A stretch of DNA of 64,000 nucleotides from Octopus vulgaris (taxonomy: Eukaryota), in contig OX597815.1 in the NCBI GenBank assembly GCA_951406725.2, forward strand, positions 140,926,001-140,990,000. The letters are read 5' to 3'. Both the position numbers and the translations under genes were made by a program. Shown piece after piece: positions 12,824-58,135 of the stretch (its first letter is position 1; each line of letters opens with the position of its first letter). Below the pieces are notes generated by a model. The model did not search any database, was not told where the DNA came from, and saw only the letters and a program-made list of their open reading frames with translations.

Positions 12824-12859
<36 letters not shown>

Positions 12860-12861
<2 letters not shown>

Positions 12862-14051
12862 AAGCCAGCCCCATGCTCAATTCGTCCTGTCGAAAGACCC
12901 TTGTCCTACGTCCTGGTTTTGTTTTGTTGTTTATTTTTTATACTTTATTTTTACCGTTATTGTTTTTACGTTTTTGTATTCTTATTGTTGTCACGTATTC
13001 TGTATTTTTGTTCGTGTACTTCGTTCGTTTTCCGTCCTCGTGTTGTATACATTCGAAGCTTTCTTCCAGGGGATCTAATGCACTTGGCTTAGATTTCCCG
13101 TGGCGGGCTGCCCATATCGGAGCAATCTCAAGATTAATCAGCCGAAATTGCTAAGATGATCTGGTTCTTGACTGATGACTGAGGGCTTCGAATGTCCCGT
13201 CCTGTGGTTCTTGTGTCGTCTCTGTGGCGTTTCATGTTCTTGTCCATGTCTGTAATTATTTTTACTGTTTACCTATATAATCGGCGGCTACGTATCCACA
13301 ATTGTCCTTATACGATAAGTATATTTTTTTCTCAAGCATTGATACGACTCTTAATCTTTCTTTCTCTCTCTCTCTCCTCCCTTATTCCCCCTCCTTTCTT
13401 TCCCTCTCCATCCGTCCCCCCCCCCCTTCTACGTTTCTCTATCTCTCTCACCTCCAGCCCCCTCGATCTGTCTCTTTCTTCTCCTCCCTCGTCCACCTTC
13501 TCTCTCTTTTCATCTGTCCCTTTCTCTTGTCTTTTGTTCTCACGTGACCGCTGACCGCTGTTGAGCGCTCTTTTCGTTCCAGCAGCCGTTGAAGCAACAC
13601 GTACTTGTTCGTCTCCCTGTGGCCATAAGGCACAACTTCATAAGCCAGCCCCATGCTCAATTCGTCCTGTCGAAAGACCCTTGTCCTACGTCCTGGTTTT
13701 GTTTTGTTGTTTATTTTTTATACTTTATTTTTACCGTTATTGTTTTTACGTTTTTGTATTCTTATTGTTGTCACGTATTCTGTATTTTTGTTCGTGTACT
13801 TCGTTCGTTTTCCGTCCTCGTGTTGTATACATTCGAAGCTTTCTTCCAGGGGATCTAATGCACTTGGCTTAGATTTCCCGTGGCGGGCTGCCCATATCGG
13901 AGCAATCTCAAGATTAATCAGCCGAAATTGCTAAGATGATCTGGTTCTTGACTGATGACTGAGGGCTTCGAATGTCCCGTCCTGTGGTTCTTGTGTCGTC
14001 TCTGTGGCGTTTCATGTTCTTGTCCATGTCTGTAATTATTTTTACTGTTTA

Positions 14052-14059
<8 letters not shown>
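12860..14059. mobile_element. Non-coding element: 1.5 tandem copies of a 780-bp unit (identical 420-bp direct repeats) inserted in (TA)n
   Basis: 12860-13279 equals 13640-14059 by line-by-line comparison. The 360-bp spacer is pyrimidine-rich and (TA)n lies on both flanks. No TG..CA termini and no credible ORF. Confidence 0.85.
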
Positions 14060-14095
<36 letters not shown>

Positions 14096-39073: not shown

Positions 39074-39690
39074 GGGCGGTGAGCTGGCAGAAACGTTAGC
39101 AAGCCGGGCGAAATGCTTAGCTGTATTTCGTCTGCCGTTAGGTTCTGAGTTCAAATTCCGCCGAGGTCGACTTTGCCATTCATCCTTTCGGAGTCGATAA
39201 ATTAAGTACCAGTTACGCACTGAGGTCGATATAATCGACTTAATCCGTTTTTCTGTCTTTGTTTGTCCCCTCTGTGTTTAGCCCCTTGTGGGAAGTAAAG
39301 AAATAGGTATTTCGTCTACTGTTACGTTCTGAGTTAAGAATTTCGCCGAGATCGACTTTGCCTTTCATCCTTTCAGGGTCGATAAATAAGTACCAGTTAT
39401 GCACTGGGGTCGATGTAATCGACTTAATCCTTATGTCTGTCCTTGTTTGTCCCCTCTATGTTTAGCCCCTTGTGGGCAATAAAGAAATAAGAATCGTTAG
39501 CAAGCCAGGCGAAATGCTTAGCGGTATTTCGTCTGCCGTTACGTTCTGAGTTCAACTCCGCCGAGGTTGATTTTTGCCTTTCATCCTTTCGGGGTCGATA
39601 AAATTAGTACCAGTCACACTGAGGTCGATGTAATTGACTTAATCCCTTCCCCCAAATTTGAGGCCTTGTGCTTTCACTAGAAAAGATTAT
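39074..39690 (+). mobile_element. SINE family 1, tandem trimer
   Basis: tRNA-like head ggcggtgagctggcagaaacgttagc, then three ~190-230-bp units each with gagttcaaattccgccgaggtcgactttgcctttcatcctttcggggtcgataaa. Confidence 0.92.
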
Positions 39691-47525: not shown

Positions 47526-49749
47526 TCCTAACATCTATCCTGGCGGAGAAAACATGCATTCATGGAGAAGAACGATATTTTCCCCATTGAACAAAAAGGG
47601 TGCCGCCGAAGCTCTTACGGATGCAAAGATCAACTGCTAATCAATCGTATGATCCTTGAGAACTGTCACAACAAGCGCAGAAATCTCAGCACCGCATGGA
47701 TTGACTATAAAAAGGCCTTCGACAGTATACCGCATCCATGGATCTTGAGATCGCTGGACATCTTGAAAATTTCTCCTGTTGTTTCAAACTTCCTAAAGCA
47801 CAATATGTCGTTGTGGAATACAAATCTCCAATTATACCACTCTAATGGAGTACTTGCCTCAGAAAATATAAACATCAACTGTGGAATTTTTCAAGGTGAC
47901 TCACTTTCACCTTTAATATTCTGCATAGCCCTAATACCCCTTACAAGTGAATTAAACAGAACAGGGTATGGGTATAAAATTGCCAATAAAAACATAAGCC
48001 ATCTATTTTATATGGATGACTTAAAACTTTATGGTAAAGACAATAATGAACTTGAAGGCCTATTGCGCACCGTGAAAGCATTCAGCGATGACATCGGGAT
48101 GGAGTTTGGACTTGAGAAGTGTGCCAAGGCCACTTTCCAGAAAGGGAAAGTGAAGACCACAAATTCAGTCGTGTTAGATGTTGACACAGTCATAAGAGAG
48201 CTTGAGCAAGAACAAACATACAAATATTTAGGGATAAATAAAGGCTCTGGTATTCAGCATGCAAGCATGAAAGAGAAAATCAGGAAGGAATGTTATAGGA
48301 GAGTTCGTGCAGTCCTGAAATCTGAACTAAATGCACGTAACAAGGTGTTAGCTATAAATTCCTTAGCAGTTTCAGTTGTTACTTATAGCTACAATGTGTT
48401 GAACTGGAATATGAGTGAAGTAAAGAATATAGATAGGAAAATACGCAAGCTGCTGAGTTGTAATAGGATGCACCACCCAAAGGCAGACGTAGATCGCCTT
48501 TACCTTCCCAGAGCCCAAGGAGGTCGAGGCCTGATCCAATTTGAACTAGCTTACAAAACAACCACAATTGGACTGGCCAAATATCTCGAAATATCGAATG
48601 ACTGGATGCTGAAGCTCGTGGAAAATCACGAGAGACGAAAGAAGCTTCATTCTATAATAAAGGAAAGCAAAAAAATTGCTACTGATCTCGTGCAGGATAC
48701 CCAAACTGAACAACCCGAGGGAAGTACGGCAACTATTGTTGCAAAGAAAGTGAAAATGATGGCAATGAAAAAAGCGCACGAGCAATTGGCTGATAGGTGG
48801 GAGGAGAAACCTCTGCACGGCAAATATGTGACCCGCAGCAAACAAGCTGATGTTGACCAGAAGCAAACCCATCAGTGGCTACGGAGCTCAGGGCTAAAAG
48901 CAGAGAGCGAAGGTTTCATCCTGGCTGCTCAAGATCAAAGCCTATTAACCCGGAACTACCAGGCCAATGTGATGAAAAAGGGAGCAGACCCAAAATGCCG
49001 ATTCTGCAACGACATGATTGAAACAGTGGACCACCTAATCTCTGGATGTAAAGTCTTAGCACCAGTGGAGTATAAATTAAGACATGACAGAGTTGGCCAA
49101 TATCTCCACTGGCTAATAAGTCGGCATTACAATATCAAAACTGCCGACAAGTGGTATAATCACCACCCAGAGGCTGTAACTGAAGGAGAAAATGTAACCA
49201 TTCTGTGGGACTTTCCAGTACATACAGACCGAACCATCAAGGCCAATAAACCAGATATTGTTGTGAAAGACCAAAATAATAAAGTTTGCTTATTGATCGA
49301 CATGAGCATCCCCTGTGATCATAATATCTCAGCGAAAGAGTTTGACAAGCTCAGAAAATATAAAGACCTACTCATTGAAATTGAGAAAATGTGGCATCTC
49401 AAGGCGGTTACAATACCAGTGATCGTAGGAGCACTAGGAATGATCAAGAAGGGAACCGAAAATTATATGAGAATGATCCCTGGCTTACCATCCCTGCAAG
49501 AAGCGCAAAAGATTGTCTTAACTGGTACATCACACGTATTGAGAAGAGCATTGTCGATGTGAGAACTGTTGCTACTCATGTATTTTAATTTAACTTAAAA
49601 ATTTTTTTTTTTTAAATGAATGAACTACTAAGTTTGGTTTAATGGCCTACCAATGTATGCTATGAGTTTCTTTGCCCTAGGAGTCGGGAAGACACTCGGC
49701 AAGAAATGGAAGCAAATTTGAAAGAAGAAAAAAAAATAAATAAAAATAA

Positions 49750-50412: not shown

Positions 50413-52101
<1,689 letters not shown>

Positions 52102-52127
52102 GTAATAGTAATAATGATAATAATAAT

Positions 52128-52405
52128 TAACAGCAAAAGGGGTTAATTGTTACCTAGCTCAGTTACCAGGAAACTTGATATTGCTACCTAAATCAGATAC
52201 AATGGCAGAAATTCAAAAGATTGTGCTCATGGGAGCTGCTCATATCCTACGCAAAATAATTTCTATGTAATCTCAAATTTTAAAACAAACACATAATTTT
52301 CTTATGGTTTCTTAAACATTCTCTAGAACAATACTATGTACAGAACCAAATATATAGCACCCTAGGCATAACACCAACATGAAATTCTAACTTGTCTCTT
52401 GATAA
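52128..52405 (+). mobile_element. R4/Dong 3' end, same subfamily as 511-906
   Basis: MAEIQKIVLMGAAHILRKIISM* plus a matching 3' UTR. Confidence 0.88.
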
Positions 52406-52818
52406 AAATGGCAATAATGATGATGATAACAACAACCTCAACAACAACAACAACAATAATAATAATAATAATTAACGGAACCCATCATAAAAGCAATCAG
52501 AACAGTGGACGGATAATCATGAATACTATAAAATAGTTGCTTTAGTAGTTACACACACACAGAGACACACTACTATGCAACACCTCCCAAAAGCATACAA
52601 AAGTAAACTCGTACTGTAAATATCCAATAAAAGTAACAAAATTCACGTGTCGTAGAAGGCCGATACGCGACAGAAAATCTCAACCTGCGCTACACCACAA
52701 AACTCACTGATGCAATACAATATCGCCCCCACCAAAAAAGAAAAAATGCAGCACACCCCACTCCATCAGCACAATGGTGCAACAAATGATGCAATAGAAA
52801 GTTACTTGAAACTTTCAG

Positions 52819-54110
52819 ATGTCGAAAAATAATGGTGGTGATAACGATGTTGACGAACGTTACTTTACCTCAGTTTATGAGACACTGGAGTTTCCGAAGA
52901 ACTCTGGTTGTAACAGCGAAAATGAAGCTGAACATTTAAGAGAAGACCTCTCGCTGGGCAGTGGATCAGTAAAGATGCAGACTGATAACAGCTGTCATCC
53001 TAGTACAACATCAGCAGATACTAGAGCAAGGAGGGGGAAGTGGAGCAGCGAGGAAAACAGGATAGTGATGCAGTGCTTCTTAGAAAATGAACCTAAAAGA
53101 AGGGGCTATAGAAAACGGATGATAACACTTTGGGTAGAGAAGGATAAAATAAAAATGATTGATCAGAGATTATTTGATCAAGCTAATGCTATTAGGAGAA
53201 GAAAGTGGATGACAGAAATTGTGGTAGTAAGATATCACAAGAGGACTGGAAAGCAAAAACCAGGCAGTGGGAAAGACAAACGACAACATATGAGATATAA
53301 CTCAAACCAAAGAAGAACTTAAAGAAAAAAATAACAATAGCGTTACCAATAAGGAAGAGACAACTAGCACCAACGACTTTTCAACTATAGGCACAAGCTC
53401 CGAAATTTGGGGGGACGGGGTCAGTCGATTAGATCGACCCTAGTACGCAACTGGGGCTTAATTTATCAACCCCGAAAGGATGAAAGGCAAAGTCGAACAT
53501 CGGCCAAATTTGATCGTAAAAAGAGACAAAATACCGCTAAGTATTTCGCCCGGAATTCTGACGTTTCTGCCAGCTTGCCTTCCAGCGACTTAAGTACTTT
53601 AAGTGAGGAAGATCAGAAGATTTTAGATGACTTGCATGAAGTATCAAGAGAAGTAAGAAAAAGACTGCACACATTAAAAAGCAGCAACACAAGGAAGCTA
53701 CAAGAAATGATTACGAAAGTAGATACTGTTCCCAGGAGGCTAGGTTCTAAAAAATACTGAAAACACTAACTTATTGATCTATGCACGAGGGGTAGTAGTC
53801 ACCAGAAGATTAGATATCTCATAGGGAAAGATTAGAAAAGAGCAAATGTGGAAAAGGAGACTACAAAAGCGAAGGCTTTAAAATGAGATCTGAGAAGAAT
53901 AGAAGCCTGGAAAATAAAAAAGTTAGGAAACACAAGATGTAAATATTGCCTCGCGGAAAGGATTTTGGGACAATAATAGAAGGGTTGAAACAACATATCC
54001 TAGCAGTAACTGGCAAGCTCTCCAGATATCAGAAAATAATAAATCAGTATCAACTGAATAGATTATTTGAGACAGACCAGAGGAGATTTTATAACCAAAT
54101 AAATAGTGCA
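52819..54110 (+). mobile_element. R4/Dong 5' (N-terminal) region, decayed and split by a SINE
   Basis: RGKWSSEENRIVMQCFLENEPKRRGYRKRMITLW...DQRLFDQANAIRRRKW and LKQHILAVTGKLSRYQ...NRLFETDQRRFY are typical R4-clade N-terminal blocks. Confidence 0.8.
53375..53582 (-). mobile_element. SINE family 1 monomer nested in the Dong N-terminal region
   Basis: gtcgattagatcgaccctagtacgcaactgg...cccgaaaggatgaaaggcaaagtcga...gtttctgccagcttgcc. Confidence 0.87.
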
Positions 54111-54164
54111 GAGCGATGTACTTATCTTAGTGACCCCGAAATGATGACGGCAATAGAACAGTAT

Positions 54165-54735
54165 TTAGGGGTTCAAATTTTGGCACAAGACGCACAAACC
54201 CAGGTTAAGTCGATTATATTGATTTTAATGTTCAGCTGGTATATAATTTATCGTCTCCGAAAATACGAAATACAAAATCAATCCGGTGGAATTTGCACTC
54301 AACTCAGAAAAATGATACTAATTTCAAAGTTTGATCAAGGCAATTTCATGGGAGGAACTAATCGATTACATCGATTCCAGGGTTCAGTTGATCATAATGT
54401 TATCGAGCCCCGGAAGGATGAAAGGTAAAACTCAACTCCTGCGGTATTCGAAACCCGAACGTAAAGGCAGTCAATATGCCGCTGAGCATTTTTCCCGGCG
54501 GGTTAACAATTCTGCCAGCTCACATCCTTCACTCAGAACAATAATATTGGTGTCACATTCTGGCAGAAGGCCTGCGATGCTAAGTCGATTACATCGACTC
54601 CAGTGTTCAATTAGTACCTATTTTATCGACCCCGAAAGTATAAAAGTCAAACTCAACCCCTGTAGAATTTTAACACAACGTAAAGACGGCCGAAATTGCC
54701 GGCCCGAATACAGGACAAGATTACCAGCAGAACGG
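54165..54735 (-). mobile_element. Cluster of ~3 degenerate SINE family 1 copies
   Basis: Repeated gtcgatta..tcga, ccccg.aagga.gaaagg and tctgccagctc blocks at ~54210, ~54365 and ~54585. Confidence 0.7.
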
Positions 54736-54750
54736 TAACAACTCTAATGG

Positions 54751-57360: not shown

Positions 57361-58135
57361 GGTGGCGAGCTGGCGGAAACGTTACCACGCCGGGCGAAAT
57401 GCTTAGTGGTATTTCGTTTGCTGTTACGTTCTGAGTTCAAATTCCGCCGAGGTCGACTTTGCCTTTCATCATTTCGATGTCAATTAAATAAGTACCAGTT
57501 ACGCACTGGGGTCGATTTAATCGACTTAATCCGTTTGTCTGTCCTTGTTTGTCCTCTCTGTGTTTATCCCCTTGTGGGTAGTAAACAAATAGGTATTTCG
57601 TTTGCCGCTACGTTCTGAGTTCAAATTCCGGCGAGGTCGACTTTGCCTTTCATCCTTACGGGGTCGATAAATTAAGTACCAGTTATGCACTGGGATCCAT
57701 ATATAATCGACTTAATCCGTTTGTCTGTCCTTGTTTGCCCCTTCTCTGTGTAGCTCCTTGTGGGCAGTAAAGAAATAGGTATTACGTCTGCCGTTACGTT
57801 CTGAGTTCAAATTCCGCCGAGGTTGACCTTGCTTTTCATCCTTTCGGGGTGAAGTAATTAAGTACCAGCTATGCACTGGGGGTCGATGTAATCACCTTAA
57901 TCCCTTTGTCTGTCCCCTCTATGTTTAGCTCCTAGTGGGCAATAAAGAAATAAGAAAGGTTAGCATGCCGGGCGAAATGCTTAGCTGCATTTCGTATCTC
58001 TTTCGTTCTGAGTCCATATTCTGCCGAGGTCGACTTTTCCTTTCATCCTTTCGGGCTCGATAAATTAAGTATCAGTTGCGTACTGGGGTCGATCTATTCG
58101 ACTGGCCCCCTCTCCCAAAATGATTAGAAAAGTAT
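57361..58135 (+). mobile_element. SINE family 1, tandem tetramer
   Basis: One head followed by four ~180-230-bp units starting at ~57361, 57591, 57779 and 57956. Confidence 0.92.

Follow-up and report, generated by a model that had tools for sequence, protein, structure and literature searches.

A young non-coding tandem element of Octopus vulgaris, likely a retrozyme with a predicted split-core hammerhead ribozyme

Results

We report a recently inserted copy of a non-coding repeat family with a 780-nt unit in a 64,000-nt stretch of Octopus vulgaris DNA (the window). We consider it probable that the family is a retrozyme whose plus strand RNA folds as a hammerhead with a split core and a non-circular permutation, with cuts after C13127 and C13907, that the monomer is circularised, and that a Penelope-type enzyme copies it into (TA)n. 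With clearly less assurance, we lean towards a broader reading. The ribozyme would be an active hammerhead outside the six permutations thought possible, with a core that is interrupted between A9 and G10.1 and enclosed by a kink-turned helix. It would be the missing ribozyme of the Naiads across phyla, captured by thousands of octopus retrozymes. The genome would record both RNA states, the stubs standing for the cut linear form and the arrays for the circle, and some circles may stay closed because A-to-I editing has altered their catalytic GAAA.

An insertion of 1.53 units between (TA)n tracts

Positions 12860-13279 and 13640-14059 form an exact 420-nt repeat with a period of 780 nt and 0 mismatches, and the element is flanked by (TA)n tracts at 12826-12862 (left) and 14054-14092 (right). 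The last 6 nt of each repeat read TATATA, which is also the start of the next unit and of the target tract. Since these letters serve twice, the element proper spans 12860-14053 (414 + 780 nt), corresponding to 1.53 copies of a 780-nt non-coding unit. The first-pass annotation of this DNA had claimed a 1.5-mer with identical 420-bp repeats and a 780-bp period, (TA)n flanks and no ORF, together with a list of core motifs (among them GAAA at 13144-13147 and CUGAUGA at 13172-13178); we recovered all of these, the motifs at exactly these places. The only frame above 120 aa within the element is a low-complexity stop-to-stop frame (13183-13554), hence no credible ORF is present. An Rfam scan of the locus returned no ribozyme match at E<=10. 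The 420-nt repeat is 100% identical at several other loci, so its identity is not peculiar to this locus (L001). The locus is organised as follows.

12826-12859, no strand: left (TA)n target tract, with GT at the junction (sequence)
12860-13273, plus strand: partial unit, 5'-truncated, unit positions 367-780 (locus L001)
13274-14053, plus strand: full 780-nt unit, its 3' end being the one that is fixed in the family (locus comparison)
13274-13279, plus strand: internal TATATA at the unit junction (sequence); putative annealing site for the nicked (TA)n primer
13128-13907, plus strand: predicted 780-nt RNA monomer between two cut sites, which would circularise (from two intact ribozymes)
13358-13535, plus strand: pyrimidine-rich spacer, length variable among copies (sequence)
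13886-13958, plus strand: second, identical ribozyme copy, predicted cut after 13907 (repeat identity, descriptor match)
14054-14092, no strand: right (TA)n target tract (sequence)

The window contains further mobile elements. The plus strand at 47532-49562 holds a 676-aa frame of a restriction-like-endonuclease non-LTR retrotransposon, which we take to be R4/Dong/HERO-like; a short 3' end and (AAT)n come after it, and a descriptor scan of the window found no split-core fold in its tail. Tandem SINE units of 184-186 nt, presumably of an octopus family, lie at 39123-39489 and 57408-57915, and pieces of a second non-LTR element at 51049-54738.

Copies share a fixed 3' end and differ in their 5' truncation

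A genome search with the unit gave 2,489 candidates and a search with the core 2,165, of which 40 each were scored. We examined 56 loci, 40 from the unit search, which is biased towards copies of more than one unit, and 16 from the core search. The 3' end lies at unit position 778-780 in 55 of the 56, TATA follows directly 3' of the copy in 55, and TA repeats are found at most 20 nt to the left in 44. The 5' ends are scattered over unit positions 1-663, with lengths of 0.46-5.52 units, and the length of the repeat differs from locus to locus, being fixed by the truncation point. None of the 56 loci is an array with a non-unit leader sequence. The variable unit number that the first-pass annotation had proposed to look for is therefore present, whereas the circular permutation of copies is not free, because all variation lies at the 5' end and the 3' end is constant.

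The (TA)n target, fixed 3' end, 5' truncation, partial tandems and some inverted 5' arms (head-to-head in L083, L232 and L241) are features of Penelope-type insertion; Craig et al. 2021 (PMC8557442) give the same set, including occasional head-to-head arms, as Penelope-like traits. The earlier view of a retrozyme-like, Penelope-type partial tandem thus agrees with the fixed 3' end, 5' truncation and (TA)n target at the 56 loci. A 23-nt S-G pattern over the conserved core has 6,644 exact matches in the genome and its reversed control 0. The same end behaviour is seen in another young subfamily, whose unit measures about 855 nt, and two older subfamilies were sampled. Contigs from three other organisms contain the unit, with depth greatest over the core. 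Contigs of four sequencing runs, which are RNA only by guess and in which strand, ends and circles are not visible, cover most of the unit and are given no weight on either side of the argument. The element is a member of a family and not an assembly error.

Some loci have a composite structure. At L047:2160-3845 an array of the 855-nt subfamily abuts one of the 780-nt subfamily via a short TA run, which may reflect insertion of one at the TA tract of the other or a template switch of the enzyme. The L217 locus carries a tail-to-tail pair and extra short 3'-end pieces with TA runs between them, suggesting repeated priming at one site. Short conventional minimal hammerhead pieces that end in (TA)n adjoin split-core copies at L047:1620-1660 and in L133. 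An unrelated non-coding, (TA)n-flanked family with the same split-core wiring was seen in L035 (minus strand, 373), L057 (plus strand, 1350) and L279 (minus strand, 256).

The core is predicted to fold as a hammerhead with a split block C

The predicted ribozyme comprises the following parts, all on the plus strand.

13049-13063: outer helix P0, 5' strand, pairs with 13181-13195; repeated at +780 (sequence, core alignment)
13070-13099: hairpin H1 between P0 and stem II (93.6% paired; 1/6 pairs changed on both sides)
13106-13110: stem II 5' strand, relocated to a position upstream of the cleavage block; partner strand 13139-13143 (3/5 pairs compensatory)
13112-13118: 5' strand of a helix tying stems I and II, pairs with 13158-13164 (90% paired; 2/7 pairs compensatory)
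13120-13121: GA of the non-bulged strand of a predicted kink-turn, with bulge 13152-13154 and GA 13155-13156 (consensus match)
13122-13133: block S, with stem III 5' strand 13122-13126, C17 at 13127 (predicted cut after it) and stem I 5' strand 13128-13133 (motif, covariation)
13139-13151: block G, with stem II 3' strand, GAAA 13144-13147 and stem III 3' strand (motif, covariation)
13166-13178: split block C, with stem I 3' strand and CUGAUGA, and no stem II strand after it (covariation, 118 cores)

Stem III is thus formed by 13122-13126/13147-13151, stem I by 13128-13133/13166-13171, immediately 5' of CUGAUGA, and stem II by 13106-13110/13139-13143, immediately 5' of GAAA. The blocks follow one another along the RNA as S-G-C, a non-circular permutation.

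We assessed covariation in 26 author-chosen cores from four (about five) related subfamilies, whose kinship inflates the counts, so that few independent events underlie them. The split-core structure is 95.3% paired in this set, and 12 of its 29 pairs are changed on both sides. Its covariation score is 0.325 compared with 0.159 +/- 0.011 after shuffling (0 of 500 shuffles reach it), and slid controls score 0.02-0.07. Both-sided changes affect 2/6, 3/5 and 4/5 pairs of stems I, II and III, respectively, which are 97.7-98.5% paired. The first-pass annotation had read the same letters as a type II hammerhead, with AUC at 13159-13161 and ucag/cuga as stem II. That model is 67% paired over the 26 cores, outer stem included, its covariation is 0.131 versus 0.134 after shuffling, and its stem II is 49% paired. 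The type II order G-S-C with conserved nested stems is rejected on this absence of covariation and the poor pairing of stem II, and the predicted cut falls after C13127 instead. The two pairings ggcug/cagcc and agcaau/auugcu, noted earlier as an alternative pseudoknot, do exist; they are no alternative and correspond to stems II and III of the ribozyme. Likewise, the long-range stem noted as 11 bp is present and extends to 15 bp in L001, where it forms P0. Only the 5-bp centre of P0 is conserved across subfamilies; P0 shows no compensatory change among the 26 cores, and its median duplex z over 118 cores is only -1.8.

The wider set consisted of 118 distinct cores anchored on the core letters (CUGANGA, GAAA) and stem I. 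CUGANGA, GAAA and NUH are present, and CUGANGA and GAAA are also seen in unanchored copies. The upstream strand pairs in at least 4 of 5 positions with the bases before GAAA in 109 of the 118 cores, whereas the strand after CUGANGA does so in just 1, which excludes a contiguous type-SGC fold with the stem II strand right after CUGANGA. Position N7 is free (U42 A35 G33 C8), and H17 is C or U. A 3-nt bulge separates stem III from the tying helix, with GA on the two strands in 115 and 109 of 118 cores, an arrangement that matches the kink-turn consensus as abstracts on kink-turns give it. Among stem II variants fetched later, pairing is kept in L198, L225, L226, L228 and L231, partly in L230 and not in L229; L227 has lost the upstream stem II strand.

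Within the 64-kb window, a sequence-independent fold descriptor had matches at the two copies and nowhere else, and it found nothing in 20 shuffled windows. Minimum-energy folding recovers P0, H1 and stem III, pseudoknots being outside its reach. HDV-like, twister and pistol folds were compared by eye with their consensus orders and did not fit.

In the proposed fold the chain would leave A9 into P0 and re-enter at G10.1 from H1. We infer that P0 and H1 may stack as a nicked rod that would hold A9 near G10.1. One viroid reportedly tolerates an extra base between A9 and G10.1. A sharp bend, which Eckert et al. could hardly reconcile with the crystal structure, would be provided by the predicted kink-turn.

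5' ends accumulate at the predicted cut site

If cut RNA served as template, insertions should begin at the cleaved bond. We searched the genome for junctions in which six A/T letters are followed by eight unconstrained letters and a 14-nt anchor. There were 659 such 5' junctions around the predicted cut, compared with 57 for the same design just upstream, the upstream window being the only control. The effective window is estimated at about 15 positions for the cut and about 9 for the control, with a per-position step of roughly tenfold or more. Among the first 100 junctions listed, judged by eye, 31 start at +1/+2, 15 at +3, 11 at +4, 2 at +5 and 32 later, while 7 lie at -1 to -4 and 2 are unclear. 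Junctions remain high to about +10 (60 of these 100). For 30 starts at +1 we asked if the T could belong to the phase of the TA tract: it cannot in 9, and it can in 21, which hence may be starts at +2. All 20 fetched loci with a +1 start are single stubs of 83-168 nt, and one of the stubs, L362, is an exact 146-nt piece of the 780-nt subfamily. The pile-up of 5' ends supports the predicted position of the cut, self-cleavage itself being predicted from the fold.

Units of one array appear to share one template

Substitutions were counted outside the pyrimidine-rich spacer (13358-13535). They amount to 0.0015 per site within arrays (71 pairs) versus 0.0158 between arrays (5,705 pairs). Locus-private substitutions, private being defined against the 56 loci except for the edited haplotype below, which was compared with the whole genome, are common to all covering units in 21 cases and not in 31. 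Of 92 units, 35 have their strictly nearest neighbour in their own array and 40 are ties. No variant tied to one unit position across loci was seen.

The array at L058 carries five A>G changes in 4/4 units, a haplotype found at no other place in the genome; one other single copy has two of the five. Clustered A>G changes in a stem are a mark of A-to-I editing. The cluster thus indicates that the plus strand is the RNA, and its presence in all four units indicates about 3.5 rounds of copying of a single edited molecule, the outcome expected from repeated copying around one edited circle of RNA. Two of the edits convert GAAA to GAGG, which would stop recutting. The earlier proposal that reverse transcription ran more than once around one template is supported by the low divergence within arrays and by this haplotype.

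The split core recurs in Naiad 3' ends

According to the available text of Craig et al. 2021 (PMC8557442), Naiads lack a canonical hammerhead, a 'HHR_half_core' is flagged in several including Naiad_Ovul, and cephalopod Naiads are inactive. By eye, we recognised the split-core strand order, in differing sequences, in Naiad_Ovul, Naiad_Obim, Naiad_Plae and the consensus printed before Naiad_Plae; in the consensus of Naiad_Dcar and Naiad_Omin no such order was visible by eye. The end motif of Naiad_Ovul has 246 matches in the genome, where the Naiad end has the fold, and in L304 a Naiad 3' end is contiguous with an RT fragment. Neighbouring Naiad stubs in L292 and L293 begin at their own predicted cut, right after (TA)n, and are ambiguous by TA microhomology. 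The octopus family shares with Naiads the (TA)n target, 5' truncation, partial tandems and an occasional inverted 5' arm (PMC8557442, as far as its available text describes them), as well as the ribozyme strand order of the 3' ends. It differs in having no ORF and in being very young, whereas octopus Naiads are decayed; beyond the fold, no sequence likeness to the octopus Naiad end was noted by eye. The split-core fold most likely descends from Naiad 3' ends.

Naiad copies in the genome are 83-92% alike with broken RT matches. Among close matches to the Naiad RT, for which 150 of 2,115 candidates were scored, no open frame exceeds 292 aa. Two young families have intact ORFs with RT and C-terminal GIY-YIG, and at least one has copies truncated into (TA)n. 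Because the Naiad copies found are decayed, a young C-terminal GIY-YIG Penelope-like family is more likely the present helper, and our best guess is a Neptune-like enzyme. In 51 loci (L194-L244), the sequence immediately 5' of the family core contained no linked autonomous ORF. The two young families can be described as follows. That of L275-L280 is intact, with many near-identical copies, a Cys motif before the C-terminal GIY-YIG (Neptune-like) and a minimal hammerhead variant in its 3' end. In that of L337-L341, L337 carries a 367-aa frame upstream and L338 an inverted arm. The 3' ends of the loci examined from both families contain no split-core fold.

Discussion

A cycle of cutting, circularisation and reverse transcription can be proposed from these features. 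A locus with two ribozymes, such as L001, would be transcribed, and the ribozyme is predicted to cut after C17; covariation backs the fold and the 5'-end pile-up the position, the chemistry being predicted. The monomer would be ligated into a circle. A nicked (TA)n end would anneal to the internal UAUAUA and prime cDNA synthesis, consistent with the fixed 3' end that we observed. On a linear monomer the enzyme would reach the cut end after 146 nt and leave a stub, a product found in the genome. On a circular template it would continue, and the 1.2- to 5.5-mers with scattered 5' ends are the products that such copying would give.

Arrays might also form without any circle, from uncut linear multimers of an active ribozyme or by tandem duplication after insertion. 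The 31 private changes that are unshared within arrays fit such an origin, and unequal crossover can expand direct repeats. Furthermore, the available text of Eckert et al. 2023 (PMC10085705) gives slow rates for non-circular hammerheads (0.004-0.19 per min), so that multimers may escape cutting. Against this stand the five identical A>G changes in every L058 unit with no donor copy in the genome, the absence of variants tied to unit position across loci and the absence of non-unit leaders, and we regard an origin without a circle as unlikely. To the same degree we doubt that the fold is a conserved, hammerhead-derived element that binds protein or protects the RNA without cutting it, the pile-up then resulting from stalled reverse transcription or a host nuclease. 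The split core, the spread of the junction excess over about 10 nt and a control confined to the upstream side would suit this idea. However, the step in junctions sits at the very bond that hammerhead geometry predicts, the core letters are found again in Naiad ends that are unrelated in sequence, and an enzyme moving 3' to 5' on the RNA should have unwound the downstream strand of every stem before it arrives at +1.

DNA rolling circle replication also yields head-to-tail arrays with one fixed and one variable end, and a Helitron-like element would explain that much of the architecture. It is very improbable given the clustered A>G changes on one strand, which point to an RNA template, the covariation of an RNA structure and the stubs that begin at the ribozyme cut. 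Helitron ends read TC...CTRR, and none of the 56 loci has them. Least credible of all is a TRIM/LTR element or an assembly duplication, for which the two identical 420-nt direct repeats at L001, as read from the assembly, could be taken. The repeat length differs per locus and is set by 5' truncation, and the 56 loci have neither TG...CA ends nor a target duplication, which disposes of the TRIM-like alternative that the first-pass annotation had raised. The joint from 13639 to 12860 also occurs in a contig from another organism's run (X17), which argues against duplication by the assembly. The retrozyme with a predicted split-core hammerhead remains our preferred reading.

If this is true, the hammerhead, the best-studied small ribozyme, gains a wiring that the permutation scheme of 2023 excluded by assumption, and a non-circularly permuted hammerhead is placed in animal genomes. 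It would also explain the seeming lack of a hammerhead in Naiads and mean that many animal ribozymes escape standard descriptors. From the stubs and the edited array, two long-proposed retrozyme steps could be read in genomic DNA, namely germ-line cutting and the copying of one RNA circle several times over.

Comparison with known hammerheads and retrozymes

Eckert et al. 2023 (PMC10085705) assumed, in the available text, that CUGANGA and its flanking stem strands are inseparable by more than 1-2 nt, and the available text of Perreault et al. 2011 shows only short core insertions. The octopus core is opened at A9/G10.1, where by their account no more than these 1-2 extra nt occur, and activity is therefore not guaranteed. 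No description of the split-core wiring was found in the open-access literature searched, and the supplements of Eckert et al. could hold related variants. The type-SGC examples presented in the available text of that study come from metatranscriptomes, none from the genome of a known organism. As described there, type-SGC (HRIMA-1 and variants) shares with the octopus ribozyme the order S, G, C, all core letters, a short linker between stems I and II, and an extra helix joining the other sides of these stems. In the octopus ribozyme, by comparison, block C is broken, the stem II 5' strand lies upstream of block S, P0 and H1 are inserted after A9, a predicted kink-turn links stem III and the extra helix, and thousands of copies reside in an animal genome.

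Metazoan non-LTR retrozymes (Cervera and de la Pena 2020, PMC7229834; Li et al. 2026, 10.64898/2026.07.22.740005), as the available texts describe them, likewise consist of non-coding tandem units with one ribozyme each, lack LTR features, are dispersed as monomers to multimers and are proposed to arise by reverse transcription of a circle. Their ribozymes are type I hammerheads in units of mostly 150-450 nt, and their circles have been demonstrated, whereas the octopus family is known from DNA sequence. Its ribozyme, judged by strand order and covariation, is not a type I hammerhead, its unit measures 780-860 nt, and its pseudoknotted fold is one that the descriptors used there would miss. 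In summary, the family works like a non-LTR retrozyme and a type-SGC hammerhead combined, each minus one defining feature, the type I ribozyme of the former and the intact block C of the latter.
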